This document shows, one piece after another, positions 3,233 through 52,458 of a DNA stretch of 53,544 nt. The translations under genes were made by a program, and so were the position numbers. The stretch's first letter is position 1. Each line of letters opens with the position of its first letter. Origin of the DNA: a virus (Duplodnaviria; Caudoviricetes); the IMG/VR virus record IMGVR_UViG_3300028025_005543, positions 1-53,544 of that record; one strand, given 5' to 3'. A model generated the notes under the pieces. The model saw nothing but the letters and a program-made list of their open reading frames with translations. It searched no databases and was not told where the DNA came from.

Positions 3233-3307
3233 ATGGTTGCGTAGCCCTTTCGTAGGTGTTAGGCTGACACTCTAGCAAGAAACCAACCCGATATCTAAGG
3301 AGAAGAA

Positions 3308-15636: not shown

Positions 15637-15960
15637 TGTCTGTCTATTGTAAAGTAAGGGTATGAGGGGGTATAGCAACTAAGGGGTATTGGGTATGGTA
15701 TCCGGTTAGATACAGACTAAATAGTCCCGATTTTGCATCACATTGCGATACGAAGTGAATTGTGTGAGTGCAGTTACTTATTGAGCTATTAGTCGTGTTG
15801 TGCTAGGGTGTGCAACCAAATACGTTGTCATATAGACAAGTCCGTATCCGGGTTACCTGTAGAGGTGCTTACGGGACTTTTTTGAACGACCTTATGCATG
15901 CGCGCCCCCTCTGTGCCAAAAAATAAGGGTGGCAGAATCCTGATTAGATTTATCCGTTTC

Positions 15961-16752: not shown

Positions 16753-17016
16753 AAAATCGTTTCTATTTCTGTTTAGATTTATCCATTATTAATAGATACT
16801 AGTCCCTCTTAGACCACGCTGACAGCAAAGGTAATACAAGGAATAAAATGCAGGGAATCAACTGTCGCAATAGCTCGCCTCTCATGGGCGCAGGGAAATC
16901 TGCGAAGTAAAACTATACTACATTTAATATTAAAAGCGATAATTCCGTGCAGGGTCACAGCCCACGCTTAACGGAGTTACCGCATCCTCGACCAGGATGG
17001 GGATAAGGTAGCAGAG

Positions 17017-25460: not shown

Positions 25461-25856
25461 TTACTTAAATTCCGCCCAAGTCTTATCGCCTACACCGAAA
25501 TACTCTCTGGCATAGCCAGATTGAATGATGTCTTTATTCAGGCAAGCCGTAGATGGGTCATCTACCTTGTCTGAACTAAAGATTCTTGCAAGAACACGAC
25601 CGTATTTGTCATTCTTGTCGGGGATTGTGTTTACAAAAACCCACTGGTGATTTGTCAGCCAGTCTTTGGTAAATGACTTCGCCTTCAATCCCATTTCTTT
25701 TTCTGCGAGGTCTTTTGTTCTTGATTCTGGTGTATTTACTCCGTAGAGTCGTACACGAATTTTGTGATGGATATTAAATCCAAGGTCAATCATGAGGTCG
25801 ATTGTGTCACCATCAATGACATTTAAAACAGTTGCTCCGTACCAAAATCTTTGCAT
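25461..25856 (-). CDS. Thermonuclease (SNase family)
   Basis: VIDGDTID...RVRLYGVNTPES...DKYGRVLA. Confidence 0.9.
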   Translation of the reverse strand: MQRFWYGATVLNVIDGDTIDLMIDLGFNIHHKIRVRLYGVNTPESRTKDLAEKEMGLKAKSFTKDWLTNHQWVFVNTIPDKNDKYGRVLARIFSSDKVDDPSTACLNKDIIQSGYAREYFGVGDKTWAEFK

Positions 25857-25934: not shown

Positions 25935-27242
25935 TTATGCGCTTGGTGCTGCGTCAAAGTTTACCTTGACGAAGGACTCTGGACGCTTGACAGCAAGGGC
26001 GAGTCTCTGCTCGGCCAAGATGACAATCGCGTTGCGGATAAAGAAGTCTGCATGCTGTTCCGAAATGCGGATGCTTGCTTGTTCACGGTCGTAGAGCTGT
26101 GCTCCCTGACCAAATGAACCAACAAGTGCAACACCCTCGGTCATTGCTGGGGTTTCAACGATTGGCAGACGCCATACCTTTGGCTCGCCACCCATTGCAA
26201 CCGAAACTGCGATGAGGTACTGGCCATTGCCGTCCTTGGTCAATTCGATGTCTTCCCAGTCGTTTGGATGCATTACTACACCCGATGGCTCGTAGTAAGC
26301 CAAGAACGAAAGGGTTGCTGCACGACGAATTGCATCAGCCTTGGTGTCGCTCATACCAGCAGTTGCTGAATAAGCACCATCAGACCAGTCGTAGGTCTGA
26401 ATGCCTGATGTCTGAAGAATACCAGTGAGGTTTTCTCCCGTGCCATCGCCATTGAGGATTTGAGCATCTTCCTGAAGACGGAGACCGTACATCAGTTCGT
26501 TGTCAATGATTGAGCGTAGTTGTGGCTCATCAGCAAGAACGTTTCTGTGTGCTGCTTCCCAGTGTGCAAGGGTCTTGACCGAAGTCTGTACACCCTCAAA
26601 CGACATGCTTGACTGTGGCTTCACACCAAAGGTTGCTGAAGCTGAACGCTCTGCAACTGCTGCGGCATTGTTCGTGAAACCGGTCATGCGGAAGTATTCA
26701 ATGATTGCTGCAGTCGTGGTACGAACTGGGAACAAGTCACGAACTCTCTTCGTACGCTTTGGCTGAACGATGATTGGGTCGCGCTGTACGGTGCCAAACT
26801 GAGTTGGGAAACCGCTAGGCATCGAGGTGAACACGTCCTTTACGTTGTAGTTGTTTGCAAGGCTTGAGCCGTACTGGAAAGGTGCTGGCATGTTTGCGCC
26901 ATTCTTTCCACCATTCAACGACTTGAATTCTGCTGAAGCAAGGAATGCCTCACCAATTGATTCAAGCTGACGGGTTGGGATTGCGTAACCAGCAGCAGCT
27001 GCGGCAGCAACTGACTGACCACTTGCTTCCGAACCCCATTCCTTTACGGTGTTCATTGCTTCCATGCCGTCAATCAAAGACTTGAGTTCCTTGATATCGG
27101 TCATGTTCTTGTCGAATGCTGACTTCTGCTTTGCATCAACAATTACGGTGCCGTTTTCGACTTTGAACGAATCGGCGATTGCTTTGTTTTCCGCCATCTT
27201 TGTGCGGAGAGCTCCTTGAAGCTCCTTCAGGTTTTCTGACAT
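25935..27242 (-). CDS. Major capsid protein, HK97 fold
   Basis: N-terminal coiled-coil delta domain, VKTLAHW, QILNGDGTGENLTGIL, VMHPNDW, AEQRLALAVKRPESFV. Confidence 0.96.
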   Translation of the reverse strand: MSENLKELQGALRTKMAENKAIADSFKVENGTVIVDAKQKSAFDKNMTDIKELKSLIDGMEAMNTVKEWGSEASGQSVAAAAAAGYAIPTRQLESIGEAFLASAEFKSLNGGKNGANMPAPFQYGSSLANNYNVKDVFTSMPSGFPTQFGTVQRDPIIVQPKRTKRVRDLFPVRTTTAAIIEYFRMTGFTNNAAAVAERSASATFGVKPQSSMSFEGVQTSVKTLAHWEAAHRNVLADEPQLRSIIDNELMYGLRLQEDAQILNGDGTGENLTGILQTSGIQTYDWSDGAYSATAGMSDTKADAIRRAATLSFLAYYEPSGVVMHPNDWEDIELTKDGNGQYLIAVSVAMGGEPKVWRLPIVETPAMTEGVALVGSFGQGAQLYDREQASIRISEQHADFFIRNAIVILAEQRLALAVKRPESFVKVNFDAAPSA

Positions 27243-37406: not shown

Positions 37407-40400
37407 CTATTCTGAACGGAACTTCTCAAATTCCTCTGCACTAATTCCGAGTTTGTCAAGCAACAGTCGAATCTGGGCTGGGGTGATTGTTAATGGGCTT
37501 TTTCCACGTGAACCACTTGCAGAACGCGGATTATTAATGAAGTTTTTGGCGGCAGATATTGAAGGTCTGCGACCAGTTATTTCAGCAATTGCCTCTACTA
37601 CTTTCTGTGGGAATCCGCGTCTACCTCTTGCTGAGTCAAATGCTTGATTTTTGAAAACATCGGCAAGTGGCATGCTGTCTGTTCGTCTTGGCTCAGGAGC
37701 AACATTTAGTTCTTCTGGGCTGTAAATATCGGCACTGCGCTTATTTGACTTCTTTGCCTTGAGAAGGGTGTCAATCTCATCTGCAGTAATTCCTTCTGCA
37801 AAGATTCTCCTCCATGTGTCACGACCGAATATCTTGGCATTTTCTCTTGCACTTGGCGTGTTGCCTCTTGAAACTGAGTACACCGGTGCATCGGGGTCAA
37901 TTCCAACCTCTTCAAATACTGCCCTTGGGTCAATGTATTTCCGCTTACGGCTTGTTCTTGGACCTCTTGCACCCGGAACATCTGGTGCTGTATCTTCAAC
38001 ATCTGGAATTTTGTCGTAATCAGTAATAGGGTTGCCTGATTCGTCATAGTAGGCAAGGGGGTCATTATTTACACCCCACAATGTTCTGTCTTCACCAGCA
38101 ACTCGTATCCGCAGGTTGTCAAGCAAGTAAATATCGCTTGTTCTTGCACCTGGTTTTCTCATTTTTTTCGCAACAGCGACATCAATACCAAGTTCATCAG
38201 CAAGTTGGGCATCAGACATACTTCCTCTGTCTGTACCACCGAACTTTTCGGCAACCCTAGCAATGATTGGTTCAAAACCCCATGAGCGACCACTTCTTTC
38301 ACCTTCAAAGAAGATGTCTCGCTCAATCATGTCAATCGGGTTCTTTTGGTCTCCCCGTGAAGCAAAACCATATTCCGAAGCATCTGGACCACTGCGACGC
38401 TTTCCTGGGCGCTTCTTTGAGCGGAGTCTGTCTCCATCTGCAAATCGCTGACGGTCTTCAGGAGACCAACGCGCCTTGGGGGTGCGAGGACCTTTGTCGC
38501 CACGAGATGCTAGACCACCGCCACGATTCATGCGAGATTCAGAAATCATTTCATCATGAAGTTTTACAGCTCTATCCAGCGCCCATTTTGGTGGTGGTGC
38601 ATAGCGGGAACGTTCATCTTGCATATCATTGACGATTTTGTCTATGCGTGGCTTGTATTTCTTATTAAACTCGTCATTACCTATGATTTCTTTCATTGCA
38701 CTTGAGATGTATTCTAGATAGGCGCCAATTTCCATTTCCGTATCTTCAAATGCATCAGAACTTGTTCTATTTTCGTTATATTCAACAGGCATCCTTGGTG
38801 TTGCAATTTTTTCAAGTTTTGAAACAGAACTTTGAGCATCACCCCGTGAAGGGAAACCGCCCCTATTTCCACGTAGTGTCATTCTGTTCAGTGCATCCCA
38901 CTGTCTGTCGGACAGTTCGCCATTTCGGTCGTACTGTGCAACGACGCTTCTCGTGAACGGGGTGTTCATTCTTCTTGCAATGGCAATGATTTCGTTCTTC
39001 TCTGGGGTGCTGAGATTCATTCTGCTTGCAAAACCATCCTCTGGAGATGGCTCTTCAGGCATCATGTCTTCTTGTTCCATTAAGTAGTCTTGAGCGGCAT
39101 CGTATGCCCAGTCCATTGCATCAAGTTCATCTGGGTCCATTGAGTCACCACCAGAAGCAAAGCCACCCTCATAGACCTGACCGTTTTCATCAAGCAATGA
39201 ACCAGTTTGTGGGTGGTCAAATGCTTGAGCCCATACGGTCTTGTTTTCATCACTTAGCATTGAAGGCTTGAGCGATGCTTGGTATGCAGTTTCGCCAAGT
39301 TCATCAGCATAAACATTGTCCCATTGACCAAGAACTCTGGTCTTGCCTTTGTCCTTGCCATTGGTGATGATTTGCTCTGCTCTTACGAAGTATGTATCGC
39401 TTCCGCCGTCGTAGCCAACGATTACTTGCTGGTTTCTGTTGACCGGAAGAACCATTTCGTTGTTACGCTTCTTCGCTCTTGTTCCAGAAATTGCCATAAG
39501 GTTTCCACGGCCAATTTGAGAGAGTGCTGTTCGCATGTCAAACTCACTTGGCTCGTATCCACCTGGTGTTGGCCAGTCTCCACGTGATGCAAAACCTTCA
39601 ACGGAAACTACTGGTTCGCCAACAACGGCGATTTCTGGTGTTTCAAATTCTGCCTTTTCACCATTGGAGAACTTACTCTTTGCATTTGGTGAAATATCCA
39701 GAATGTAATTGACGGCTTTTTGTGCATCAGTCATTGCTTTCTGAAGGGCATCTGGGTCTTGCTTTAGAGCCTTCAACCATGATGCAAGGTAAGGTCCATG
39801 ATTTTCTTGAATGTCTGGCTCAATATTGTGAGAAGACATGAATATGGCCGAAGCGATTTCTGCTACAAGTTCTTCGTAAGCATATTCAGGTGTTCCAAAT
39901 GCGCCCATCTGCTCTCTGTCAAGACGACCCTTGCCACCCGTCCAGTGCATCAACTCATGGCCTACTGTTGAGTAGTAACTTCTAGCATCATTGAAATTCT
40001 CAAAGTTCGGAACTTGGATAAAGTCACCGCTTGGTTGGAAGAACGCTCTGTCTCCACCATTTTTGATAACAGCAGGAATTTCTGAAATAGTTTTTTCTAG
40101 GTCAGCAACTCGTTCTGCTTCTGGAAGGATTTCCTTCTTGTCAAAGTCAGCTGGCATTCCATCAATCTGTTTAAGGTTGAACACTGTTGCAGCCTTAAAA
40201 ATGATTTTGCCTTCACCCATTGTTCCGTCGGCTTTTTCTTTGCCTTTCATGAACATTGGAACAAAGATTTGTGTTCCTTTTTCGCCCTTGCGAACTTGTC
40301 CGCCAAGACCCTGCCACTGGTTATATGTTGCCCACTTATTGGAGTCGTAACCTTTTATGTCCGACATTACGGACAAGAAGAACCAGTTAGAACCTGAGTA

Positions 40401-43400
40401 TTTTTTACCAGTTGCACCGTTTTCTGGCATTCCGGTTCTTCTCCATGGGAGTTTCCATTTGCCAAGATTTTCAGGGTCTTCTAAGGCATCAATGAGTTGC
40501 TTTTGCATATCTGCAAAAACATCTTCCTTTGTCCTTCTCTTTACACCGCTCTCTCCTCTTGAAGCAAATCCACGAGGGGTCAGTCCAATGACGTCACCAT
40601 CTGAATATCCTCCAAGAATCGAGAGCGGGTCAACTTTTGGGCGGTCGCCGCCAGTCTTTGGGGTTGCACCATCAAGAATGTCTTGAGCGAGTATTTCTTG
40701 CATCTTTCCTGCAACCAATGAATTCGGCTCACCATACTCATTGGTTAGTCTGTAACCAGCAATACCTTCTTTTGAAAGAGCATCTTTCGCTCTTTGCATT
40801 AGATTGTCGTACTCTGGGTCGCCAGAATTTGCCATTTCAGCAAGCCTGCGTTCTGCAGTCATTCTTGCTCTGTTCTTAGGAGTGTTTCTTAAACTTGGGT
40901 CACCTGTTCTTCTTGGCTTTTTAGGACGAGATGGAATATTTCCATATCTGTCAAAATCAACTCCACCTGAAGCCAATCCGCCAGTCCTTTGGTTGGAGCC
41001 CTTAATGATATTCTCTATAATTTCTCTGCGCTTATTCTCAAGGTCAGACGCTACTGCAGCCATCTCAAAGGCATCCATGTTCTTTGCAAACAGTCTTTCA
41101 AAATCTGTTTCTGAAAGACCCAAGTCAACAAGCATGTCATCAATTTCTTTTTCGCTCATTGTTGGGTTCATTTCCTCTGCTTTTTGTCTTGCCCAGAAAG
41201 AGTAGTCATCGCTGGCCCTCTTGAGGTCTCGTTCAAGGGTAATCAAATTTGCCTTTGCCTCTTCGTCGTAAAGTCTTCCTATTTCATCGTCAATTTCTCC
41301 CAATGATGCACCATCTCGTTGCATTTTATTGAAATATGCACGATTATTGTCAATCATGTCGTCGGCAACTCTTCTTTTTTGACCTCTTGTCATATTGGAC
41401 CACGGTACAGTATTGATTGATGGCTTATATTCAGCCGAATCAGCCCAAACTCCACCCCCAGCTGGTGGAAGAACTCTGTCAAGAGCATTAAAGATTGAAG
41501 GATTTCTATCAAGTTCTGTGTCAAGAAGGGTCATAGGGGCATCTGGATTGAATGCAGATGTTTGACGTGAAGCGAATCCGTCCATTGGTTCTTCGTCCAT
41601 ATAGTCATATTCTTCGGGCATGTCGGCAGCAAGTTGGTCAATTGACCGCTTCATTCTGCTTACATAATCTTCTGCTTCACTAATATCTGTTGAATCGCTT
41701 TCAAGAGGATTGTCAATTAGTGACTCAGCAGTTAAGAATGCTGCTCCGTCTAGACCGTATGCGCCAAGTTCTCTATCGCTTATGCCGAGAGCATTGACTT
41801 CGTCTCGTAGACTAGAGAATGCATCCATGAGCGAATTAGAACGTTCCTCACGGAGTTCTTGTGCCCGTTGAGCCCAAAACTCGTACGCATCTTCAATGCT
41901 TGGTGCTTCTTCATCAAATTCATTAAAGTATGCTTCCATGACCATTTCGTCATTCTTGGCTTTGTCTTCAGGACTGTAACCAAATTCTCTTAAATCGTCG
42001 TACTCTTCATTAAGCACACCACCTGAGGCGAAGCCATCTTCAAAGTCTGCTGGTTTTCCGTCCGGACCAACCCAAAAACCATTTTCGTCTTGGGTTTGGA
42101 CTATTCTCTTGCGCCTTGGCGATGAAGGCTTGGCGAATATTCTTGGTCCGTAGAACTCAATCAATTCATCAATCCGTTGCTTTCGCTCTTCTGGGTCGGT
42201 GATTTCAGCAAGGGCTTCTCTGTCATCAGAGTGCATTCTTGAAGGAACGATTCTTTGACCAGTACTGCTCTCATTGATTGATGCACGTGAAGCTAATCCG
42301 TCTTCAACGCTGTAATCCATTGGCTCACCATCACGGTCCATGTTCCCAATTGGATTTGTTGCATTGCGTCCAGCCGCTCTATCTCTTGCTCTTTGGGCTG
42401 CGAGTTCGCGTCCGTATTCTGCATCGTCTGGCGGTGGTCCAAGTCGACCTGAAGCGAATCCATCACGACCGTTTCGTCGTCCATTTATCTTCTGAATATC
42501 AGAAGTCGTGTATGCGCGCTTGTTGTAGTTTGTTGCCCGACCATTTTCATCAAGGTAGAAACCATTTGCGTTTGTACGATTGGTGATTTTTGGATTTGAC
42601 CTCTCGCCCATATCACCCATTGAGTAAAACGCTGATTCAGGGATTGCTGTTTCTGTTCTGAATTCAAAGTCGTCGCGCACTCTACGAAGAGTTGCTCCAC
42701 GACTATCAGATGCTTCAATGTCGTCAACTACAGACTGTGGAACATTCTGGTAAACATAGAATTCTCCGTTGCCCTTGCCGTCACGTCCACGATACTCAAC
42801 TCGCAGTTCACGCTTGTCTGGGTCGTATTCAACACGGTTGAGTGCGGCGCTTGAGCCAACATCAATTTTGCGGTAACCCATACCAAGTTCTTCTGCTTGC
42901 ATTTCCATCATTGCAATCTGACGGTCGTCATAGGCTCGTGCTTTTGCATCAGCAGTAATTTCATCTGCTGAAGTGCCTGTACCAGCATTGATTGCTGAGT
43001 CAACAGCACGTGCAAAATAAGCACGTTGTTCTTCTGGTCCAATCTTGTCCCAGTGTGCATCAACTTGTGCTTCGTATCCACCAGCACCGAGGTCGTCTTC
43101 TGCGCCTGGAGTACGCTCCATTCTGTCGTTTGCCCCAGCGCGTCGAACCGACTTTGACGCCTTCAGTCTGTTGATTATTTTGCCCTTAGAAGAAGCCGAG
43201 GCAAGTTCATTTGCCTCATCTGCTGTTACACCTTCGTAGATATAACTTCCAGCAGCATTTCCGTCTTTGTCCTTGAAAGTGACAACGAGTTCTTCTGCAT
43301 TTGGGTCGTAATACGACTCGTAAAGAGCAGCACTTCTGCGAACATCAATGTCTTGAATTGCCGATGAACGACCACCAGCAGATGGAGTCATATCTCCACG

Positions 43401-46400
43401 ACCATTGATTGCATCAACTGTTCTTGGGTTCGTTACTTCAACATCGTAATTTTTCTTTACGTCATTGATTACACGACCAATTGAGTTTGAACCACGAACT
43501 TCGTTGTCAAAGTAGTCTGCAGGAACACCAGAGTAGGTGTAATACCTTGCTTCACCACCAGTCTGTCCAGGCTTAAATGCAACATGGAGTTCACCGGTAT
43601 TGCGGTCGTAGTGAACTGCCTCAATCGCACTTGAGTTTGGAGTTTCAAAAGTATCAAAGCGTGAACCGCCACGTGATGCAAATCCAGACCGTGAATTTCT
43701 GAGTGTTTGACGTGCAGTTTCATCTGCGCGAGCATTTCTTCCACCAAATGCTTCTCGTGCTGTAAGTGGGTTTGTTCTACCTTCAAACAATCTGTCTTCT
43801 GGGTAGTTTTCATTCCAATCAAGTTCATCAAATGGCTCTGGAACACTATTGAGGTCTGATTCTGCTACTTTATAATTTTCTTCTTCTCTGCGCAGGCTTT
43901 CATCAAGAGCAGTGCGGAGAAGTTTTTTTGCTCGCTCATTATTTGTAGTACTTGGGTCTTCAAGAAGCGATGCAATCTCATCTGCATCTGATTCAGAATC
44001 AAAGGCTCCATACTTGTCTGGATTCGTAAATGCTCTTAAATCATCAAGAATGCTCCTTAATGAACCAGCCTCGTCTTCAATGTCTTCTTCGTCACTTATA
44101 GAGTCAACGCGATTCAAAGATTTTTCAATATCTTGGAGTTCATTCCATGATGCAGAGTAATCATCCATCCATGATTTCATCCGTGCATAGTCATCACGGT
44201 GACCTTGAATCAAGCCATCAATTTCTTCAATTGCACTATCCATGCTGTCAAGCATGTTGTAATCATCTTCGTCAAAATTTGGATTATCAGTACCACCAAG
44301 AACATCGTAGATATCTGTATTTGGGGTAATGGTAATACCGTTTGCTTCTGCAATTTCCGTAGCAATTTCTCGACGTTTTTTAATTAATTCTGTTCGTTGC
44401 TCCATGAGATTGTAATAGGCGCGCGGGCCATACGCATCATCAAGGGATGCCATGTCACTTCCACTTATGGTGGTCAGTTTCGCAACATCTTTTTCGTAAT
44501 CTTCAGTTGATTTACGAGCTCCACGTGATGCAAGACCGAAGTCCTCTTCACCTAGCGTGTTGGCATCATCTTGATTCTTTTCTCTCTTGAGAACATCTTT
44601 ACTCAAAGAAGCCCTCATGGAGTCCATGGTTTTTCTGGCTTCTTCGTAATCAGAGTAATCCGCACTCATTGGATTCTTGATTATTTCTTCAACATAGGCA
44701 AACTCAGAACCGTCGTAAGCCGTTCCTCTACGCTCAGTCGTGGTAAAACCTTCAGCCAAAGCTTCCATCTCGTAAAGTTCCGAAAGCATCTCGTCGGTGT
44801 ACTTTTCGCGTGTGGTTAAACCTCTTCCATCCCACTCTTCTGCAGCCAACCGAAGTTTTTCGTCATCGCTGTATGTATCGCCATCAAAATAGCCATCTGC
44901 ATCTAGTTCGTCAACGAAATCTTTTTGAGTTTGACGGTCAAGTTCTTCATATCTAAAAATTGTAGGAATGTCAAATTTACTGATTCTTACAGGTTCTCCA
45001 AGACCCATTGCAGCATCGCTACTGCGTGAACCAAATCCCATGTCTCCAGCATCACCAAAATCGGCGAAGTCTGGGTGGAATTCTGGGTTCTGCTGGAGGA
45101 AGTCGTCGTAGTCAAAGCCGCCTTCTTCTAGTTCATTCTTAATTCTTGCCCAGTCTCCACGACCGTTGAGATAGTTCTCAATTGACTCATACAAATCTTC
45201 TTGTTCTTTGCTTGTCAAATCATTGTATGGACGCATTTCTGGTGTCGCATCTCCACTGGATGCAAAACCATTCCTAAAGTAAGGTCGCATGAGGTCTTGG
45301 TTTTCTTGCACGAATTTGTTTTTGCCGTTAGCAAATTTTTCAAAATCACCCCACCAAGTCCATTGAGGTGTGACGCGTGTGTCGCCATCATCATCAACTT
45401 CATATTCAATTTCACCGTTGATTGCTTCTTTAGCAAAATCTTCAAGTTCTGTAATGAAATATTTTCCGTCACTGCTCTTCTTGCCTGTATATTGTTTGTT
45501 TCGGAACGATTCTTCTAAAACGCGCAATGCACTAGGAGCATCATCAAGCATATCCAAGGTTTGCATATGCTCATATCGGGTTCTGTTTCCGTCCCCAGTA
45601 TTAAGGTCACGACTCCGTCTATTTGCACTATTGGTTATTTCTACGATTTTATTTCGAGATTTTCTAAATTCATTAATAAAATCACTTTGTGGATTATCAA
45701 GAATTGATTTGATTTTTGCAAATTCTTCGTCAATGGCATCTGCTTCTTCTTTTGTTAATAAGCCATTGTTGCGTCCTTCAGATACTGCATCCGAAGATTC
45801 TTTTATTCTTCTGAATAAATCTTCTTTACTAACACTGCTGTATCGCCAATCCCGTTCGCCACTTTCAATTAACTGTTTGAATAAATCTTCATCCTTTAGT
45901 GCTGGTGTTGCAACATATTCAATGCCATCTATCTCAAGAATGAAAGAATCTTCTCTTATATCAAGACCCTTTTCATCGTCTATCTGTAGAGCCACATTGT
46001 CGGCAGCAGACTTATCACGCTTCGCTATGTATTCCTTGATGTCGTTGATTATTTCTGTTTGCACTTTTTCAGGGATATTGTCCCATTCATCATCGGAAGT
46101 TGCATCGTAGTCTGGTTCTCGTTCGTCAAAATCAAAATACGGGTCTGAGTCTGGGTCGTACATTCCATCTCTGAACGAAGCAAAACCCCTATCCTCACCA
46201 CGTGAACCAAAACCATTATCCTCAAAAGGACTCATCTTGTCAATGGTGAATGTCTTTTTTACACCCTCTGAATCTTGACCAACCATGTTGACTTTGCCCG
46301 TTTTTGGGTTTTTAAAAGTCTGGACTGGGAAAACTTCTCTGTTCTTGCCGTTGTAATTGAATCTAAGTGTCTGACCGTTGTATCGTGCATCGTTAACTAA

Positions 46401-49400
46401 TTTTTCGAGTGCATCTGCATCAGCAATTTGTTCTGCCGTTGGAGTGACAATTGATTCTTTTCCAGCAGAAACCACTGGTCTCGCACCCGGAGCAATAGTG
46501 TCACCAGTCCGTCTACTATCAACAAAACCACTTGGCTTTTTGGCAGCATTCTTTTTCTTTTCTTTATCTGCTCTATTCTTTAGAACACTCCACTGCTTGT
46601 CTGAAAGGCGCCCACGCTTTCTATAATCCCCCAACAGTTTCTGAATGAATTCATCTGATGAACCATCAAGGGTGTCAATGATTTCTTTTCGCTCTTCAAG
46701 CGATAGACCACCGCCACTATAGGTCGCTGTTGACTCTGGGTATCTCCGGCGACCACCACCGCCACCGCCAACTTCTCTAACTATGCTGAAACCGTCTCTT
46801 GTTGCATCATAGATTCCGTCCCCATCTTCAGCAGCAAATCGTATTTCGGTCTGACCGTCGGACATCACGACATAGCCATCACTTGAAGTGCCGTCTGGGT
46901 TGGTTCGGTATGAACGTGAACCAAATCCAATTTGACGTTCGTTGTAATCATCAGCCGCTGCTTCAATGTAGTTATCGTAAGCAAGAGCCATTGCATACAG
47001 AGAGTCTCCGTCTGCTTCTTTCAGATACTCATCGTGTAGAGCGTCGTTGTTCATCCAGTATTCAGTAACATTTCGTGCATCGTCTTCACGTGCACCGTTT
47101 GCTTTCAAGGCTTCGATTGCTTGCTTTTCAAAGTCTTTTGCATATCCATATTTTTCTGGATTTGCTTCAAAGTCACCTTGTGCAACTTCTGGGTTATAAT
47201 CACGTGAACCAGGACGCTCGCTTCCTGGATTGTTCTCAAAGTATGCCTGCTCAATGTCAGACTTATCGTCATCAGATAATTCATCGTATGAAGACCACCA
47301 CTTACCAAGTGATGCAAATCCATCTGTTGCATTTTCTGCGTCTACCATTGCATCCGTTAGGTCGTCTAACTTGTTCTCGTGTTTACGAATCTGTCTGGTA
47401 GTTGCATTTGCTTCACTGCGAGTCATTGCATAACGTTTCATCAAGGTTTTCTTGAGTTCCTCGTCATCCATTTGGGTGTAATCCATGAAATAATCGCCGT
47501 ACTCACGGTCAAGGAAGTTTTTGAATTCCTCTAACTCCTCTAGTGGCGTTGGTTTTTGTAGCGATGGTGGAAGACCACGTGAGGCAAAGCCGTCACGACT
47601 ACGCATGTAGTCTTCGTAGTCTGGTTCAGGAATGGTGTCCTCAACCATGTCATCGTAGTAATCTTCTTCTAGTTGTCTGAAGAACTTAGAAAGTATTTCG
47701 TCACCTGCTTCGTCACTAATAGTCTTGTCATCAGACAAGTACCTATTATGCAAATCTTCAAGTTGGGAGTCACTTAACTGACTTCCGGTTCTACTGTTGT
47801 ACTTTTCCAACTGGTCAAATGTGATGTCTGTATCAAACTTGACTTTGTCAGTCAACCACTGTTCTATGTATTCATCACTGAGTTCTTCATCATCTGGCTC
47901 AATTGACCTTCTAGGGTCACCCCAAAGTCCATCTCCACGCGATGAAAGACCACGGGCAGAATCTCTTCCTTGTTCGAGAATTGAGTCTTGTTCATCTGCC
48001 GACAAACTGTCCCATCTTGACTTCTCTGTTTCAAGGTCTGCTGGATTTGCAAGGTCAGCAAACTCTTTGTCAAGTTGACCATAGAAGCCTTCTTCGTATG
48101 ATGCAAAAATATCTTCAGCATCTGCCTGCAACCCAGAGTCCGTTGACCAGTCGCCTTCTGGCAACAAATCGCCAATTCGTTCTGCTGGTGAATCGCCAGC
48201 CCATTCACCACTAAGCGGACCGCCGGTTCCATCTTCAAGAAGATATGCAACTATTCCGTTTTCACGAATAAAGTCTTTATCTTCATCACTTAGATTCTTC
48301 AGATTGTCTGCAAGAATCTGCGCTCTTCCTGATGCAATATCTGAACCACGCTTGCGCGATGCATCAATTCTGCTTTGTTGTTCTGGGGTTACATCTCCAC
48401 GGCTACTAAAGCCACGCTTTGAGCGATTTTTTTCGTATTCAGCGAGAAGTTCTCCGTATTTTGGTTTCTCGTAGCGTGGATTGTTGCGACCAGTAAAACC
48501 ATATCCGGGACGAAGGTCTTCTGGAGCATTTCCTTCTTCCAAGATGTCACGAACTCCACTGACATCAAATGTTTCTCTACCAGTTGATTCCGTTCTCTTT
48601 GGTGGAACGAATTCTTTTCCGAACTGATTCTTGTATGCTTCGCGGCGTGAGAATTCATGAGAAATCTTAAAGAGTTCTCCATCTGTTGCTTCTCTTGCAG
48701 AGCCAGTTTGTCCACGTCGAGCAGCAACAAGTTTCTGTCCTTCTGCACGGAGACCCTCTTCAGACATGTCCCAATACTTAGCAAGTCCTTCATTTTCTGG
48801 TCGGCGATTAGCAAGGAATGAAATATCATCCATTGTCCGTGGTTGAAGTTCGCCTGCAGCAAGTGCTTCTTGGCGCTCTTGACCTTGAAGAAGACTTGGG
48901 TCTTTCGTTGGCTTCTTGCCGGTTCTAATTGTTGGCTTGTCAAGAAGTTCAGATGAATTCCTCTTCTTTCCACCAACTTCTGGCAAGTCCATGTCTGGCT
49001 TCTTGATAGGAATATATGGTCTTTGGAATGCAGTACCGTCTTGTGCAAATCCGTCGTTGTCACCGTCAATTGCATACGGGTTGAACGACTGTGCAAGGGT
49101 TCGCAGGTTTCCTACGGATTGACCAATCGTTTGGCCGATTGCTTTAACTGCATTCTGAAGCGCATCAATTGCTTGTGCAGAGATGCTTCCATTAACAATG
49201 ATTCCATTGTCAGAGTCAGTTGTTGAGAGTTTATGGTAATTAAATACTGGCTGGAGCATGCTCTTTGCTTGCACCATATGAATTTGAGGAATTTCAATAA
49301 GGTGTGCATATGCAGACTTGCCAACACCAACTTGACCACCAAGCATCGTGTTCATTTCATCTTGGTCATCATCACGGTATGGAATTTGCTGTGGTTGCAT

Positions 49401-50330
49401 AGGAACCATTGATGCATCAGCAGGTTTGACTTCAATTTCTTGCTGAATTTGTGGCTTGTTGTCACTTCCAGAATATGCTTCTGGTTTTCCAAACATGAAT
49501 GTGTTGTAACCATCTGGTGTGTGGTATCCAACTCTGTACATTGAAACTTTTCCATCAGTGGTTGTTCTACGGAAAACGATAAAGCTATCTGTTGCTTCAA
49601 CAATGTCAACTTTTGAACCAGTTCTTTCACTGAGTTCTGCTTGGATTTTTTGAACTTTGTCTGCTTCTAGTGGTTGTGCAAGACCTTCTGCAAAAATGTT
49701 AAATGGTTCGTCTTGTTCTTGTTCTTTTTCTGGGGCAGCAATTACAATCATTCTTGGCTGTTGCTGTTCGCCCATCATTGGCATGCCAGCAATAATTGGC
49801 ATCATGTGATTCTTCTGTTCGCTCTTTACTGAGATAGTTCCAGTCAATTGGTTTGCACCATGAAGAACTGGAGAAACTTCGTAGAGTTCAACTTCCTTCA
49901 AAACATTTGCTTGCTGGGCTGGGTCAAATGCACCATTGATTGTCTTATAACCAATTGACCACTCTTGCTCTTCGCCGAAGAATGCAACGCTTGCAAATGC
50001 TTCTTTACCTTTTTCTGATTGAAGGTTGAATTGAACCTTTGCATACAAACCACCGATTCCAGCATTTCTCATCTTTGCTGGAAGACGTGAGTCTCCTGGT
50101 GGAACTTCGTACATCTCAAGTACTTTTCCGATTGGGTCATTCCAACTGTGCGCCCAAACAACTCGTGGCTTGCGACGAGTAAGGCTCTTTGCAAATGCAC
50201 CTGTTACAACAATGTCGCCTACTGAGTCTTTGTTGCCAATACCAGCAACGAAACACTCGACAATTCCTTGCATTTCATCAAGAGAAATTGCACCACTAGC
50301 AGCAGATTTGAATTCAAATTGTTCGTTCAT
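37407..50330 (-). CDS. HK97-type prohead protease fused to a ~4100-aa multidomain polyprotein
   Basis: N-terminal KDSVGDIVVTGAF, WAHSWNDPIGK, EWSIGY, ELYEVSPVLHGAN; three KTSC, ArdC (LPWRR..P.NGATGKKYSG.N...WATYNQW...QVRKGEKG) plus HELMHWTG peptidase; ~23 GFASRG-like motifs. Confidence 0.93.
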   Translation of the reverse strand: MNEQFEFKSAASGAISLDEMQGIVECFVAGIGNKDSVGDIVVTGAFAKSLTRRKPRVVWAHSWNDPIGKVLEMYEVPPGDSRLPAKMRNAGIGGLYAKVQFNLQSEKGKEAFASVAFFGEEQEWSIGYKTINGAFDPAQQANVLKEVELYEVSPVLHGANQLTGTISVKSEQKNHMMPIIAGMPMMGEQQQPRMIVIAAPEKEQEQDEPFNIFAEGLAQPLEADKVQKIQAELSERTGSKVDIVEATDSFIVFRRTTTDGKVSMYRVGYHTPDGYNTFMFGKPEAYSGSDNKPQIQQEIEVKPADASMVPMQPQQIPYRDDDQDEMNTMLGGQVGVGKSAYAHLIEIPQIHMVQAKSMLQPVFNYHKLSTTDSDNGIIVNGSISAQAIDALQNAVKAIGQTIGQSVGNLRTLAQSFNPYAIDGDNDGFAQDGTAFQRPYIPIKKPDMDLPEVGGKKRNSSELLDKPTIRTGKKPTKDPSLLQGQERQEALAAGELQPRTMDDISFLANRRPENEGLAKYWDMSEEGLRAEGQKLVAARRGQTGSAREATDGELFKISHEFSRREAYKNQFGKEFVPPKRTESTGRETFDVSGVRDILEEGNAPEDLRPGYGFTGRNNPRYEKPKYGELLAEYEKNRSKRGFSSRGDVTPEQQSRIDASRKRGSDIASGRAQILADNLKNLSDEDKDFIRENGIVAYLLEDGTGGPLSGEWAGDSPAERIGDLLPEGDWSTDSGLQADAEDIFASYEEGFYGQLDKEFADLANPADLETEKSRWDSLSADEQDSILEQGRDSARGLSSRGDGLWGDPRRSIEPDDEELSDEYIEQWLTDKVKFDTDITFDQLEKYNSRTGSQLSDSQLEDLHNRYLSDDKTISDEAGDEILSKFFRQLEEDYYDDMVEDTIPEPDYEDYMRSRDGFASRGLPPSLQKPTPLEELEEFKNFLDREYGDYFMDYTQMDDEELKKTLMKRYAMTRSEANATTRQIRKHENKLDDLTDAMVDAENATDGFASLGKWWSSYDELSDDDKSDIEQAYFENNPGSERPGSRDYNPEVAQGDFEANPEKYGYAKDFEKQAIEALKANGAREDDARNVTEYWMNNDALHDEYLKEADGDSLYAMALAYDNYIEAAADDYNERQIGFGSRSYRTNPDGTSSDGYVVMSDGQTEIRFAAEDGDGIYDATRDGFSIVREVGGGGGGRRRYPESTATYSGGGLSLEERKEIIDTLDGSSDEFIQKLLGDYRKRGRLSDKQWSVLKNRADKEKKKNAAKKPSGFVDSRRTGDTIAPGARPVVSAGKESIVTPTAEQIADADALEKLVNDARYNGQTLRFNYNGKNREVFPVQTFKNPKTGKVNMVGQDSEGVKKTFTIDKMSPFEDNGFGSRGEDRGFASFRDGMYDPDSDPYFDFDEREPDYDATSDDEWDNIPEKVQTEIINDIKEYIAKRDKSAADNVALQIDDEKGLDIREDSFILEIDGIEYVATPALKDEDLFKQLIESGERDWRYSSVSKEDLFRRIKESSDAVSEGRNNGLLTKEEADAIDEEFAKIKSILDNPQSDFINEFRKSRNKIVEITNSANRRSRDLNTGDGNRTRYEHMQTLDMLDDAPSALRVLEESFRNKQYTGKKSSDGKYFITELEDFAKEAINGEIEYEVDDDGDTRVTPQWTWWGDFEKFANGKNKFVQENQDLMRPYFRNGFASSGDATPEMRPYNDLTSKEQEDLYESIENYLNGRGDWARIKNELEEGGFDYDDFLQQNPEFHPDFADFGDAGDMGFGSRSSDAAMGLGEPVRISKFDIPTIFRYEELDRQTQKDFVDELDADGYFDGDTYSDDEKLRLAAEEWDGRGLTTREKYTDEMLSELYEMEALAEGFTTTERRGTAYDGSEFAYVEEIIKNPMSADYSDYEEARKTMDSMRASLSKDVLKREKNQDDANTLGEEDFGLASRGARKSTEDYEKDVAKLTTISGSDMASLDDAYGPRAYYNLMEQRTELIKKRREIATEIAEANGITITPNTDIYDVLGGTDNPNFDEDDYNMLDSMDSAIEEIDGLIQGHRDDYARMKSWMDDYSASWNELQDIEKSLNRVDSISDEEDIEDEAGSLRSILDDLRAFTNPDKYGAFDSESDADEIASLLEDPSTTNNERAKKLLRTALDESLRREEENYKVAESDLNSVPEPFDELDWNENYPEDRLFEGRTNPLTAREAFGGRNARADETARQTLRNSRSGFASRGGSRFDTFETPNSSAIEAVHYDRNTGELHVAFKPGQTGGEARYYTYSGVPADYFDNEVRGSNSIGRVINDVKKNYDVEVTNPRTVDAINGRGDMTPSAGGRSSAIQDIDVRRSAALYESYYDPNAEELVVTFKDKDGNAAGSYIYEGVTADEANELASASSKGKIINRLKASKSVRRAGANDRMERTPGAEDDLGAGGYEAQVDAHWDKIGPEEQRAYFARAVDSAINAGTGTSADEITADAKARAYDDRQIAMMEMQAEELGMGYRKIDVGSSAALNRVEYDPDKRELRVEYRGRDGKGNGEFYVYQNVPQSVVDDIEASDSRGATLRRVRDDFEFRTETAIPESAFYSMGDMGERSNPKITNRTNANGFYLDENGRATNYNKRAYTTSDIQKINGRRNGRDGFASGRLGPPPDDAEYGRELAAQRARDRAAGRNATNPIGNMDRDGEPMDYSVEDGLASRASINESSTGQRIVPSRMHSDDREALAEITDPEERKQRIDELIEFYGPRIFAKPSSPRRKRIVQTQDENGFWVGPDGKPADFEDGFASGGVLNEEYDDLREFGYSPEDKAKNDEMVMEAYFNEFDEEAPSIEDAYEFWAQRAQELREERSNSLMDAFSSLRDEVNALGISDRELGAYGLDGAAFLTAESLIDNPLESDSTDISEAEDYVSRMKRSIDQLAADMPEEYDYMDEEPMDGFASRQTSAFNPDAPMTLLDTELDRNPSIFNALDRVLPPAGGGVWADSAEYKPSINTVPWSNMTRGQKRRVADDMIDNNRAYFNKMQRDGASLGEIDDEIGRLYDEEAKANLITLERDLKRASDDYSFWARQKAEEMNPTMSEKEIDDMLVDLGLSETDFERLFAKNMDAFEMAAVASDLENKRREIIENIIKGSNQRTGGLASGGVDFDRYGNIPSRPKKPRRTGDPSLRNTPKNRARMTAERRLAEMANSGDPEYDNLMQRAKDALSKEGIAGYRLTNEYGEPNSLVAGKMQEILAQDILDGATPKTGGDRPKVDPLSILGGYSDGDVIGLTPRGFASRGESGVKRRTKEDVFADMQKQLIDALEDPENLGKWKLPWRRTGMPENGATGKKYSGSNWFFLSVMSDIKGYDSNKWATYNQWQGLGGQVRKGEKGTQIFVPMFMKGKEKADGTMGEGKIIFKAATVFNLKQIDGMPADFDKKEILPEAERVADLEKTISEIPAVIKNGGDRAFFQPSGDFIQVPNFENFNDARSYYSTVGHELMHWTGGKGRLDREQMGAFGTPEYAYEELVAEIASAIFMSSHNIEPDIQENHGPYLASWLKALKQDPDALQKAMTDAQKAVNYILDISPNAKSKFSNGEKAEFETPEIAVVGEPVVSVEGFASRGDWPTPGGYEPSEFDMRTALSQIGRGNLMAISGTRAKKRNNEMVLPVNRNQQVIVGYDGGSDTYFVRAEQIITNGKDKGKTRVLGQWDNVYADELGETAYQASLKPSMLSDENKTVWAQAFDHPQTGSLLDENGQVYEGGFASGGDSMDPDELDAMDWAYDAAQDYLMEQEDMMPEEPSPEDGFASRMNLSTPEKNEIIAIARRMNTPFTRSVVAQYDRNGELSDRQWDALNRMTLRGNRGGFPSRGDAQSSVSKLEKIATPRMPVEYNENRTSSDAFEDTEMEIGAYLEYISSAMKEIIGNDEFNKKYKPRIDKIVNDMQDERSRYAPPPKWALDRAVKLHDEMISESRMNRGGGLASRGDKGPRTPKARWSPEDRQRFADGDRLRSKKRPGKRRSGPDASEYGFASRGDQKNPIDMIERDIFFEGERSGRSWGFEPIIARVAEKFGGTDRGSMSDAQLADELGIDVAVAKKMRKPGARTSDIYLLDNLRIRVAGEDRTLWGVNNDPLAYYDESGNPITDYDKIPDVEDTAPDVPGARGPRTSRKRKYIDPRAVFEEVGIDPDAPVYSVSRGNTPSARENAKIFGRDTWRRIFAEGITADEIDTLLKAKKSNKRSADIYSPEELNVAPEPRRTDSMPLADVFKNQAFDSARGRRGFPQKVVEAIAEITGRRPSISAAKNFINNPRSASGSRGKSPLTITPAQIRLLLDKLGISAEEFEKFRSE

Positions 50331-50436: not shown

Positions 50437-52458
50437 TTAGTAAATCGAATTCCAGGCTCCGTGAGTTTCTTCAAATGCAATTTCATGGCGGACTTTTCCA
50501 TGCAAGTTCGTGTACATCTCAATAATTTCTTTCTTGAGCGACTCGTGTCTTGCTTCTTCACCTGGGGTGTTGATTGCATTGATGATGGCATTCTTTACTT
50601 GCGAGTACATATCGGCATTAATCTGCTTAATGTTCTCAATGTGGCGGTAAACCTTCACACTGATATCAAGCGAACTCCAGTTTGCATTTGGCTGTCTGAT
50701 TTCAATGGCATCTTTGACGATTGCTGAAAGCACTGGTTTGATGTCATCTTCTAGTTGCTTATCCCAGACATCAGGGTTGATGATTGACTCGGCATCAAGT
50801 GTCCCTGCAAATAGTGCTTTGCGTGACTTAATCCCATTTGCCTTTTCCATGACAACACGTTGTTGTCTTTCAAGAACTCGCTCAAGGGAGCGGTCAAGAA
50901 TTTCAACCCATCTGTCAAGAGTTCTAGACAAGTCCTCAGACTTGAACTGCATCGGCCCACTTGCTGAAGCCATCCCCTCTGGGAGAGGTGCTGTTGCAGT
51001 TTCGGGTGCGCCCATAGGTGGAGCGATTTCTCCGGGATTTGCACCCATTCCACTTGTTGCTGCAGCCAATGCACCAGCCATCGTGTTCGGGTCAAGACCA
51101 CTTGGAGGTGCTCCCTCAACTGGTGGCATTCCCGGAGGCATTGCCCCTTCTGGCGGTGGCATTCCAGGTGCTCCCGGCGCCCCAGGTGCTCCACCAGCCA
51201 TCATCGGTGGCTCTTCCATCTTCTTCTTAGTGTTGGCAATTGGCGTCAAGTTTGGATTCAATAGAAGCGAGTCAGCAAGGTCAGCTTCAACTTCCTTGCG
51301 ACCACTAAGCAATCTGTATTCATTGACACTGATTACACCCTGTGATAATTCTTCTTTCAAATATCTTTCACGCTCTTGTTTGTAGAGCATGAGGACAGGA
51401 ACCTCGCTTGTATCAAAGTCAACGTAGTTGACAGGGTCAAGTTCGTCAAGTGCTCGTGCAAGAGGCTCAAGGTGGGGAAGCATTGTCTCTGTCCAGAACA
51501 CGCGGATTTCTTCTCCAGCATTGCTGAAGGTTCTTCCTGCAGCATTGCCGATTACCGTTTCAGGAACACCGAATGCAGCGAGAATTTCTTCTTTTGTAAT
51601 CTGGCGCATCTGAATATAAGCGGCATCTCTTGGACTAGCAGAAACATCAACAAAATCAACTCCATCGTCTGCTGACAGAACTGTCGTTCTGCCCGTTGTT
51701 GCAAGGTTTCCTCTGAATCGACTCTTCAATTCTTCTTTATCGTCGTCATCAATTTCGCCCTTAACAACCAAGAGGCTTCCCGGACGACCATCATTCATTA
51801 GGAAGTTTCTGTTGTACAACTTTGCAAAGTTCTCAATTTCAATTGCAATTCCAGCTGATTCCATTGGTGTTAATGAGAGGTATGGGTCAAGTGGGTGTGG
51901 TCTTCTTACCCATACAACATCTTCAGGCTTGAGAATTACTGGCTCTCCGTTTGGCATCATCACTTCGTAACCAGAAACGAATTTCTTTGGACACGGGATT
52001 GGTGATGTTGCTTGAGGTGGCAATAGGTTTAGACCAATAATGTCTCCATCGCGCCCACGAACCTTTTCAATGAATGCCCCACGAGTTCCAAGGAGTAATT
52101 GCGATGAAAGTCTGTAGCGGAAGATAAATGAGTTTTCGCCAATGTTTGACTTAGTGTTAAGAACTTCAAGCAGGGTTGAATTTTCTGCCTTCTTGCCAAC
52201 AAGGATTTCTCCATCTGGAGAGTTGTCTTTTCTCAAAATAATTGGAAGTCTTGCTTGGTTGCCTGCAATTACGTCAATGCATCTGGCCACCCAAGTAACT
52301 CGTTGCATTCCTTCTCGGTACGCACGTTCAATGTCCCATGAGTCCTTGTATGGCTTGCCGGTAAAAGACTGATTTTGCGCTACGGGCGCACCGGGTCCAA
52401 TGAGTGCCTTGGAGTTAATATTGTTGAGGGCTTTATTTGAACCTGTGTTCCATGCCAT
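50437..52458 (-). CDS. Portal protein (HK97 family) with Pro-rich linker and MuF-like C-terminal extension
   Basis: WVARCIDVIAGNQARLP, ILAAFGVPETVIG, GVISVNEYR; C-terminal IAFEETHGAWN. Confidence 0.93.
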   Translation of the reverse strand: MAWNTGSNKALNNINSKALIGPGAPVAQNQSFTGKPYKDSWDIERAYREGMQRVTWVARCIDVIAGNQARLPIILRKDNSPDGEILVGKKAENSTLLEVLNTKSNIGENSFIFRYRLSSQLLLGTRGAFIEKVRGRDGDIIGLNLLPPQATSPIPCPKKFVSGYEVMMPNGEPVILKPEDVVWVRRPHPLDPYLSLTPMESAGIAIEIENFAKLYNRNFLMNDGRPGSLLVVKGEIDDDDKEELKSRFRGNLATTGRTTVLSADDGVDFVDVSASPRDAAYIQMRQITKEEILAAFGVPETVIGNAAGRTFSNAGEEIRVFWTETMLPHLEPLARALDELDPVNYVDFDTSEVPVLMLYKQERERYLKEELSQGVISVNEYRLLSGRKEVEADLADSLLLNPNLTPIANTKKKMEEPPMMAGGAPGAPGAPGMPPPEGAMPPGMPPVEGAPPSGLDPNTMAGALAAATSGMGANPGEIAPPMGAPETATAPLPEGMASASGPMQFKSEDLSRTLDRWVEILDRSLERVLERQQRVVMEKANGIKSRKALFAGTLDAESIINPDVWDKQLEDDIKPVLSAIVKDAIEIRQPNANWSSLDISVKVYRHIENIKQINADMYSQVKNAIINAINTPGEEARHESLKKEIIEMYTNLHGKVRHEIAFEETHGAWNSIY

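Follow-up and report, generated by a model that had tools for sequence, protein, structure and literature searches.

The window analysed here is the whole of IMG/VR virus record IMGVR_UViG_3300028025_005543, 53,544 nucleotides (nt) of DNA from a tailed phage (Duplodnaviria; Caudoviricetes). Its minus strand carries an open reading frame (ORF) of 4307 codons, referred to below as the giant ORF, whose product starts with an S78-family prohead protease and continues as a long chain divided by 23 copies of a short motif resembling GFASRG. Comparison with related sequences gives good support to the view that this motif delimits cassettes. On balance we also favour the reading that the chain is processed at the motifs by a phage protease, of which the fused S78 enzyme is the likeliest, and that packaged cargo proteins would be freed in this way.

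The motif was defined by the regular expression G[FL][AGSP]S, and its 18-nt sites are listed in Table 1. The giant ORF, whose frame is open throughout, contains 23 copies against 0.70 expected from composition; 2000 shuffles gave a mean of 0.72 copies and a maximum of 5. An earlier note on this DNA, made from the letters alone, had listed 23 motif positions, all of which the regular expression recovered; the positions given there are the low ends of the sites, and the first bases lie 17 nt higher. The note described the sites as mostly GFASRG. The motif is borne out, but "mostly" is too strong: exact GFASRG accounts for 5 of the 23 sites, G[FL]ASRG for 7 and GFAS for 13. Position 5 does vary, as the note had observed (R at 16 sites, G at 4, and L, F and S at one each). 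The first motif starts at amino acid (aa) 640, and the protease module is therefore free of it. A six-frame scan of the rest of the window found five further copies in a 2069-aa ORF and two in a 1480-aa ORF, making 30 sites across three giants; outside these three, the only matches were in stop-to-stop frames of 105 aa or less. Pooling the 28 sites of the giant ORF and the 2069-aa protein gives, in order, the profile G, F (23) or L (5), A (22), G (3), S (2) or P (1), S, R (21) or G (4), G (20) and D (10).

The window protein was cut at the motifs into 24 segments, which were then compared with relatives. The blocks of homology start at the relatives' own motifs and stop one residue short of the next motif, and adjacent blocks differ widely in their level of identity (77%, 44% and 87% in relative L003). 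Segments 5–7 (553 aa) are absent from relatives in which the N-terminal segment (aa 1–639) is 89–92% identical, and the ArdC cassette, which starts at aa 3254 here, is found at aa 1016 in L015. To avoid any bias from cutting the query beforehand, the uncut protein was also compared: of 36 internal ends of high-scoring segment pairs, 20 lie within 10 aa of a motif (12.6% at random) and 10 within 3 aa (4.2% at random). Gain and loss of cassettes, which the earlier note had suggested looking for across homologues, are found at the motif, and so is their reordering. In the cases checked, recognisable domains are bracketed by the motif and never interrupted by it; the three KTSC stretches lie inside the segment at aa 2216–2623, and ArdC/MPTase inside that at aa 3254–3578, as the note had proposed. 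We note separately that segment 12 (54 aa, 42300–42461 on the minus strand) contains a stretch of 35 aa that is 94% identical to L040, a relative whose protease head is 62% identical; this segment is absent from close relatives, and may represent a recent transfer of a cassette between clades.

The motif is conserved above its surroundings. Among 178 orthologous pairs of site and relative, identity reaches 95% at G and 93% at S, against 64–76% at the other motif positions and 46–71% in the flanks. Conservation at the protein level, claimed previously, is supported, and the conserved motif is where homology blocks begin and end. The suggestion that cleavage is determined by GFAS as a whole does not hold: the constrained positions are G and S, with F/L at 69% and A at 64%, and other clades differ. 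A model of aa 3118–3830, made with AlphaFold2 from an alignment of 18 rows, places all six of the motif sites that it covers in coil between folded units, with a predicted local distance difference test (pLDDT) below 50, as expected from the disorder that the earlier note had proposed to look for. The folded units are a confident helical unit, the ArdC-N/MPTase pair (pLDDT 70–88) and a small helical unit. In this model 295 of the 713 residues have pLDDT below 50, and for some cassettes the alignment is shallow, so that low confidence is partly lack of information. Disorder propensity is also slightly higher at the motif flanks (0.160 vs 0.120, P=0.0012).

At the DNA level, the statement that codons vary between copies is correct in that several synonymous codons occur at every position, but usage is skewed rather than free. 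In the 28 pooled sites TTT is used for 19 of 23 Phe (52% in the background), TCA for 19 of 28 Ser (30%) and CGT for 11 of 21 Arg (23%); Gly is encoded by GGC 8 times, GGT 10 times and GGA 10 times. The skew is towards GGn-TTT-GCT/GCA-TCA-CGT-GGn, and may be a result of recombination through microhomology of the linkers as cassettes are exchanged.

We then consider the family to which the protein belongs, using searches that were seeded on the protease module. IMG/VR contains 421 relatives of the protease head, and a collection of 5.8 billion proteins contains at least 214 giants of 2368–7538 aa that carry it. The 120 giants examined are the query and its 119 best matches, and in all 120 the S78 protease is N-terminal. 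A short repeated motif stands out de novo in 115 of them. It is of the type G-hydrophobic-x-S, and its exact form, or flavour, depends on the clade: x[FL]SSG in 42 giants, GFxS in 34, GLSS in 11, GLAS in 10, GM[RA]S in 9, LS[LF]F in 5, and GLRS and G[SA]RS in 2 each, with none found in the remaining 5. Longer clade versions are GFASRG, [RK][FL]SSG[RK], GLASST, GLSSG and GMRSR. The dominant 4-mer class is present in a median of 12 copies per giant (range 4–25), and the first motif always lies past the protease module, its median position being aa 644 and its earliest aa 514. Mapped onto a quick tree of the protease, motif type changes 20 times, against a mean of 67.1 after shuffling, which shows clustering by kinship and not co-evolution. 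Pfam domains in the cargo of relatives include ArdC-N, MPTase, KTSC, UvrD-type helicases, AAA_30, DEAD, sigma-70 region 4, pentapeptide repeats, many HTH families, RNase_T+WYL and DUF2958. Relatives are also present on three GTDB contigs; these are binned contigs of metagenome-assembled genomes, which give no reliable host. When the protease and the capsid protein were run by tblastn against 50,697 phage records, all the relatives recovered had less than 60% identity and lacked the fusion.

The same cassette can carry different flavours in different genomes. The ArdC cassette, which is bracketed here by GFASRG, is bracketed in L066, where the cassette is 47% identical, by [RK/S]LSSGK at 2123 and 2444. 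The RNase_T+WYL pair is in a protease-fused chain in P0050, with G[LS]RS on both sides, and in a separate giant in the window, with GFASRG. In P0052 and P0062 a UvrD helicase of about 770 aa has GLSSG on both sides and no site inside it. The flavour therefore belongs to the genome and not to the cassette, and all substrate proteins of a genome have it in common.

A flavour also extends to several proteins of one genome. In the window, the 2069-aa giant has no protease, and all five of its motif sites are retained in an ortholog from a relative, at 72% identity; conservation of the motif in a giant without the protease therefore argues that it is read in trans. In genome G003, which is estimated to be 91% complete, GL[ASR]S[ST]T is found in four giants of 1227, 3041, 2207 and 3365 aa, of which only the 1227-aa one contains the protease. 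In G001, a complete genome of 160 kb, [FL]SSG occurs 15 times in the polyprotein and twice in the homolog of the 1480-aa protein; more generally, the relatives of the 1480-aa giant in G001 and G003 bear the motif flavour of their own genome. The sharing of one flavour among separate proteins therefore indicates a trans-acting reader. We note in addition that a 1413-aa protein of G001 (12733–16971, minus strand) has KFSSGR at aa 44, which is where one would expect a short N-terminal propeptide to be removed.

The 2069-aa giant is made up of three paralogous HExxH modules, one small segment, a cassette with WYL and RNase_T (aa 1305–1687) and a DUF5872 C-terminus. The DUF5872-type end is found free-standing (167–187 aa, 61–63% identity) in G001 at 70180–70725, in G003 at 91087–91554 and in G004 at 136513–137028, and one unit can therefore be either a cassette or a separate gene. 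The HExxH modules are approximately 340–420 aa each, with a mutual identity of 19–24% and a conserved downstream pattern YG..(s/t)p.E..AE..SA, and match no Pfam family. A resemblance to MPTase seen by eye was dropped, since hhalign against the ArdC cassette aligned the HExxH motif alone. An AlphaFold2 model of one module (pLDDT 69, predicted template modelling score 0.76) had as its best Foldseek match in the PDB a putative zinc metallopeptidase at E=0.056. These modules may constitute an undescribed zincin-like family.

The protease chain and the 2069-aa giant also share an element of 33 aa (Table 1). It occurs again in G003, close to the start of the 3365-aa giant (approximately 80926–81099), with a weaker form in the protease protein of that genome, and so is present in two divergent genomes. 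Its pattern, F(N/D)..A(I/Y)DGD.DG..QD.T.(F/W).RP, contains a DxDxDG-type loop, and the strict form (DGD.DG) is found in the protease chains of 15 of 74 relatives. The element may be a common packaging/targeting signal or a Ca-binding one, and is a candidate for bringing separate giants into the same prohead.

The identity of the protease is secure. Pfam places the S78 prohead protease at aa 23–173 (PF04586, 41.7 bits against a cutoff of 21), and the PHROGs match is phrog_3244, head maturation protease. It is related to HK97 gp4 (BLAST E=1e-9): His61 and Ser125, which are invariant in 18 relatives, align with gp4 His65 and Ser114, which we take to be the catalytic residues of the HK97 enzyme. 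With the protease domain as query, phmmer gave no match among PDB sequences at E<=1. A complex prediction with the protease domain (from alignment A2) and a 41-aa junction peptide gave a score of 0.00; this was run without controls, and is evidence neither for nor against.

The major capsid protein provides an indication of where cleavage may take place. Its delta-like N-terminal region is closed by F100-L-A-S103 (26934–26945), in which neither F100 nor S103 varies among 62 distinct relatives. Within the family the capsid protein is 70–98% conserved. This sequence matches the [FL]-A-S core of the motif, except that it lacks the G. It lines up with F101-N-K-S104 of HK97 gp5, where the maturation cut is presumably K103|S104, and a Gordonia phage has F-T-K-S at the aligned place. 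By this analogy F100-L-A-S103 is a candidate maturation site. Herpesvirus assemblin, which has the same fold, cuts Ala|Ser. The alignment with HK97 and the specificity of assemblin therefore together suggest G-F-A|S-R-G as the scissile bond in the linkers.

The gene order of the head module is shown by the coordinates in Table 1. On the minus strand, the portal gene is followed directly by the giant ORF, then by seven further ORFs, among them the 1480-aa ORF, and then by the major capsid protein gene, which lies approximately 10 kb downstream of the giant ORF. After the capsid gene comes directly a 131-aa ORF of an endonuclease family (25461–25856, minus strand), which may be a homing endonuclease, and which is abutted by a class II (B12-type) ribonucleotide reductase gene (23535–25460, plus strand).

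Table 1. Positions in the window of the three giant ORFs, their motif sites and related features. Positions are numbered from the first letter of the window; residues are those of the protein that contains the feature.
Feature	Residues	Position	Strand	Sequence or remark
Portal protein		50437..52458	-	PF04860; immediately upstream of giant ORF
Protease-cargo polyprotein (giant ORF)	4307 aa (483 kDa)	37407..50330	-	between portal gene and downstream head genes
Motif-free N-terminal module	1-639	48414..50330	-	S78 prohead protease + ~465 aa possibly scaffold/targeting
Shared 33-aa element, protease chain	408-440	49011..49109	-	..AIDGDNDGFAQDGTAFQRP..
Motif site 1	640	48396..48413	-	GFSSRG
Motif site 2	794	47934..47951	-	GLSSRG
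Motif site 3	914	47574..47591	-	GFASRG
Motif site 4	1004	47304..47321	-	GFASLG
Motif site 5	1135	46911..46928	-	GFGSRS
Motif site 6	1373	46197..46214	-	GFGSRG
Motif site 7	1382	46170..46187	-	GFASFR; 9 aa past site 6
Motif site 8	1688	45252..45269	-	GFASSG
Motif site 9	1765	45021..45038	-	GFGSRS
Motif site 10	1932	44520..44537	-	GLASRG
Motif site 11	2216	43668..43685	-	GFASRG
Cassette 11	2216-2623	42462..43685	-	three KTSC domains
Motif site 12	2624	42444..42461	-	GFASGR
Motif site 13	2678	42282..42299	-	GLASRA
Motif site 14	2766	42018..42035	-	GFASGG
Motif site 15	2918	41562..41579	-	GFASRQ
Motif site 16	3118	40962..40979	-	GLASGG
Motif site 17	3254	40554..40571	-	GFASRG
Cassette 17	3254-3578	39597..40571	-	ArdC-N + MPTase-PolyVal zincin; size of free-standing ArdC
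Motif site 18	3579	39579..39596	-	GFASRG
Motif site 19	3723	39147..39164	-	GFASGG
Motif site 20	3766	39018..39035	-	GFASRM
Motif site 21	3825	38841..38858	-	GFPSRG
Motif site 22	3939	38499..38516	-	GLASRG
Motif site 23	3988	38352..38369	-	GFASRG
Third giant	1480 aa	31465..35907	-	HExxH motif + two motif-like sites
Motif-like site in third giant		35142 (first base)	-	GFGSRF
Motif-like site in third giant		32985 (first base)	-	GLASQS
HK97-fold major capsid protein		25935..27242	-	PF05065
Second giant, without protease	2069 aa	9469..15678	-	5 GFASR[GD] sites
Shared 33-aa element, second giant	31-63	15490-15588	-	E=4e-6 vs protease-chain copy
Motif site in second giant	425	14406 (first base)	-	GFASR[GD]
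Motif site in second giant	771	13368 (first base)	-	GFASR[GD]
Motif site in second giant	1182	12135 (first base)	-	GFASR[GD]
Motif site in second giant	1305	11766 (first base)	-	GFASR[GD]
Motif site in second giant	1688	10617 (first base)	-	GFASR[GD]

Within the giant ORF, Pfam identifies three KTSC stretches, the best at aa 2493–2546, ArdC-N at aa 3271–3384 (PF08401, E=3.3e-24) and MPTase-PolyVal at aa 3411–3533 (PF18818, E=1.1e-37), and a PHROGs scan agrees with these assignments. Cassette 17 thus has, inside 325 aa, ArdC-N followed by the HExxH MPTase domain, as in the ArdC anti-restriction protein. It is 40% identical to annotated ArdC of the phiCbK type, and its H341, E342 and H345 (numbering of alignment A1) are invariant; in Caulobacter phages ArdC is a free-standing gene. 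A WYL-like domain had also been proposed for the giant ORF. The whole protein has no Pfam match to it at E<=0.01, 10 of the 24 segments scanned singly at E<=0.1 gave sub-threshold noise only and no WYL, and the label is therefore unsupported; the resemblance to the WYL region of the 2069-aa giant is limited to a BLAST E of 0.61. As a separate observation, 14 of the 23 cargo segments have a calculated isoelectric point (pI) of 4.1–4.7, which recalls acidic DNA-mimic anti-restriction proteins, while two short ones (59 and 49 aa) have a pI of 11.2.

We propose the following mechanism. The chain would consist of a conserved module of approximately 640 aa followed by about 23 exchangeable cassettes, joined by a disordered linker G-[F/L]-[A/G/S]-S-[R/G]-G. 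The protease module would bring the chain into the assembling prohead, and the other two giants would enter separately, the 2069-aa one possibly by means of the shared 33-aa element. Once activated, the S78 protease would cut every linker, and analogy suggests that the cut would probably fall on the N-terminal side of the invariant Ser. The three giants would then yield approximately 24 + 6 + 3 products, including an ArdC-type anti-restriction protein, KTSC proteins, an exonuclease and the zincin-like modules, many of them very acidic. These products would remain in the head and be ejected with the DNA. Because one linker would suffice for any cargo, we propose that cargo is gained, lost or swapped by in-frame recombination at the linkers. 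In its fullest form, which we put forward tentatively, the idea is that the protease drags up to ~5700 aa of unrelated, concatenated anti-defence and takeover cassettes into the prohead and dices them at a universal G-hydrophobic-x-S linker, so that two dozen small proteins are co-injected; the linker would also serve as the recombination joint, and its flavour would evolve in concert across all the substrates of a genome.

Several observations weigh against cleavage by the S78 protease. The protease domain is 73–96% identical (alignment A2) across clades that have different motif flavours, and the changes of flavour are therefore not explained by the protease: either the S78 enzyme would have to read little beyond G, a hydrophobic residue and S, or there would have to be another reader. 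No co-variation was found between the capsid residue before the Ser (A, D, E, N or G) and the flavour of the polyprotein. The phage encodes an MPTase and four unclassified HExxH stretches, which are possible alternative cutters. A precursor of 483 kDa is a heavy load for a prohead, some segments of the chain are very short (9, 43, 49, 54 and 59 aa), an odd size for effectors, and the codon bias of the motif hints at some DNA-level homogenisation. Finally, all members of the family are metagenomic and none is cultured, and the closest cultured phages do not have the fusion. With these points taken into account, processing by S78 still appears to us, on the whole, the most economical mechanism, and the S78 protease is the one component common to every family member found, in searches seeded on that module.

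Another candidate enzyme is one of the phage's own zincins, either the MPTase-PolyVal of the ArdC cassette or one of the HExxH modules (three in the 2069-aa giant and one in the 1480-aa giant), acting in the head or after ejection. The MPTase match within the chain is strong, and autoproteolytic processing of polyvalent proteins by MPTase has been predicted (PMC5512222). However, at least four copies of the motif are retained in 44 of the 49 listed relatives whose chain lacks PF18818, and MPTase is therefore not required in cis. In G003, at 91% completeness, tblastn finds no ArdC/MPTase, yet the motif is present in four giants. The HExxH modules have no significant match to a known peptidase by hhalign or Foldseek, and it is S78 rather than a zincin that recurs throughout the family as searched. 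We therefore regard a zincin as an unlikely cutter.

The chain might instead travel uncut, as beads on a string that are packaged and ejected whole, with the motif serving as a docking site (for the capsid interior, the portal, DNA or a chaperone) or as a site at which the invariant Ser is modified. Giant virion proteins that remain uncut do exist, such as the virion RNA polymerase of phage N4, which reportedly has about 3500 aa. Some proteins bearing MPTase are transferred at full length, according to Iyer et al. (PMC5512222). Nevertheless, a mere hinge needs no fixed sequence, yet G and S are far better conserved than the flanks; a docking repeat need not bracket every domain; and the motif marks exactly those exchanged units that also exist as separate genes (ArdC and the DUF5872 end). 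Linkage to a maturation protease also favours cutting, and we consider an uncut chain improbable. A precursor that is packaged whole could also be cut by a host protease after ejection and so be activated in the new cell. The flavour differs between close phages while the phage protease barely changes, which could reflect their hosts, and a flavour common to several proteins of one genome would fit any single reader. This idea leaves the fusion to a prohead protease and the absence of the motif from the protease module unexplained, and we give it little credence. Least probable in our view is that the motif is mainly DNA-level microhomology that mediates cassette recombination, with the peptide incidental to it. 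The codon skew described above and the exchange of cassettes at the motif agree with this. Nonetheless, several synonymous codons are used at every position, G and S are kept where the flanks diverge, and other clades keep G-x-x-S with different residues and hence different DNA; recombination at the linkers may produce the bias as a side effect, which is compatible with cutting by S78. Three further mechanisms were set aside: 2A-like ribosome skipping, since there is no resemblance (and we know of no such mechanism in bacteria); intein or SEA/GPS-type autoproteolysis, which needs a folded domain round the site, whereas the sites here are in predicted coil; and carrier-protein phosphopantetheine sites, in which G-x-D-S starts a helix of a four-helix bundle and does not occur in linkers.

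Of the systems described so far, the polyvalent proteins found in phages and conjugative elements (Iyer, Burroughs, Anand, de Souza, Aravind 2017; PMC5512222) come closest; these are predicted to be packaged in the capsid and processed by peptidases, with an assemblin-like peptidase among the types listed. Like them, the giant ORF combines many unrelated domains (S78, three KTSC, ArdC-N and MPTase) in one phage polypeptide: both are giant and multidomain, occur in portal-terminase phages, and join ArdC-N and the MPTase zincin to many effector domains. The differences are that their assemblin-like peptidase is "always at the C termini" (a descriptive regularity of that data set and not a definition), whereas here it is N-terminal in 120 of 120 giants, and that they have 2–15 domains, as against approximately 24 segments in the giant ORF and a dominant 4-mer class that reaches 25 copies in relatives. 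In the passages searched no recurrent delimiting linker motif or genome-specific flavour was seen ("linker" occurs 0 times and "cleavage" 3 times). The earlier note knew of no description of this system; this holds for the fusion of the protease at the N-terminus and for the delimiting motif, but not for the general polyvalent class, which is known. More widely, we did not find in the literature the N-terminal protease fusion, the concatenation of about two dozen units, the delimiting motif, its genome flavour or its presence on giants without the protease, although proteins of this kind might be listed among the supplementary architectures of Iyer et al., which lay outside our search.

In T4 (gp21), phiKZ (gp175) and SPN3US (gp245), one head protease is known to process many proteins of the head interior at a short consensus; the giant-phage consensus is AXE or SXE and differs between related phages, N-terminal propeptides target proteins into the prohead, and the products are ejected with the DNA (PMC5694885). 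The system described here is similar in having one short consensus in several proteins of a phage (30 sites in three giants here, and four giants in G003). It differs in that the substrates in those phages are separate gene products, each of which normally receives one cut or a few close to its N-terminus, while here they are concatenated with a site between every unit; in addition, the protease family and the consensus are different, and in those phages the protease is not fused to its substrates.

The closest cultured relatives are Gordonia phages of the ChisanaKitsune, GMA6 and DalanDe group, in which the protease is 37–42% and the capsid protein 44–47% identical. Their protease gene is directly upstream of the capsid gene, and their protease is a stand-alone protein of 501 aa with an acidic C-terminal tail and no cargo cassettes. 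HK97 has a protease of the same fold family, and its capsid protein is 40% identical over 275 aa (NC_002167). In both, the delta-like N-terminal region ends in F-x-x-S at nearly the same residue number. HK97 gp4, in contrast, is a stand-alone protein of 225 aa without cargo, and its known substrates are gp5 and itself. In its manner of working, the giant-ORF system would resemble the polyproteins of positive-strand RNA viruses, in which the virus's own protease (3C or NIa-type) cuts a repeated short site between functional units. There is no evolutionary relationship, and a double-stranded DNA tailed phage does not need a polyprotein for expression. The purpose of concatenation in the phage is likely to be co-packaging.

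Provided that the linkers are cut, the arrangement would represent a novel means by which a tailed phage organises the proteins it packages: a precursor that carries its own protease and a universal joint, such that any in-frame ORF placed between two linkers becomes cargo. It would explain how polyvalent proteins are processed, a question left open in their 2017 description, and would provide a sequence rule that delimits about two dozen candidate anti-defence proteins per phage, most of them very acidic, in hundreds of genomes. It would also offer a portable cleavage module of natural origin with which foreign proteins could be loaded into capsids.

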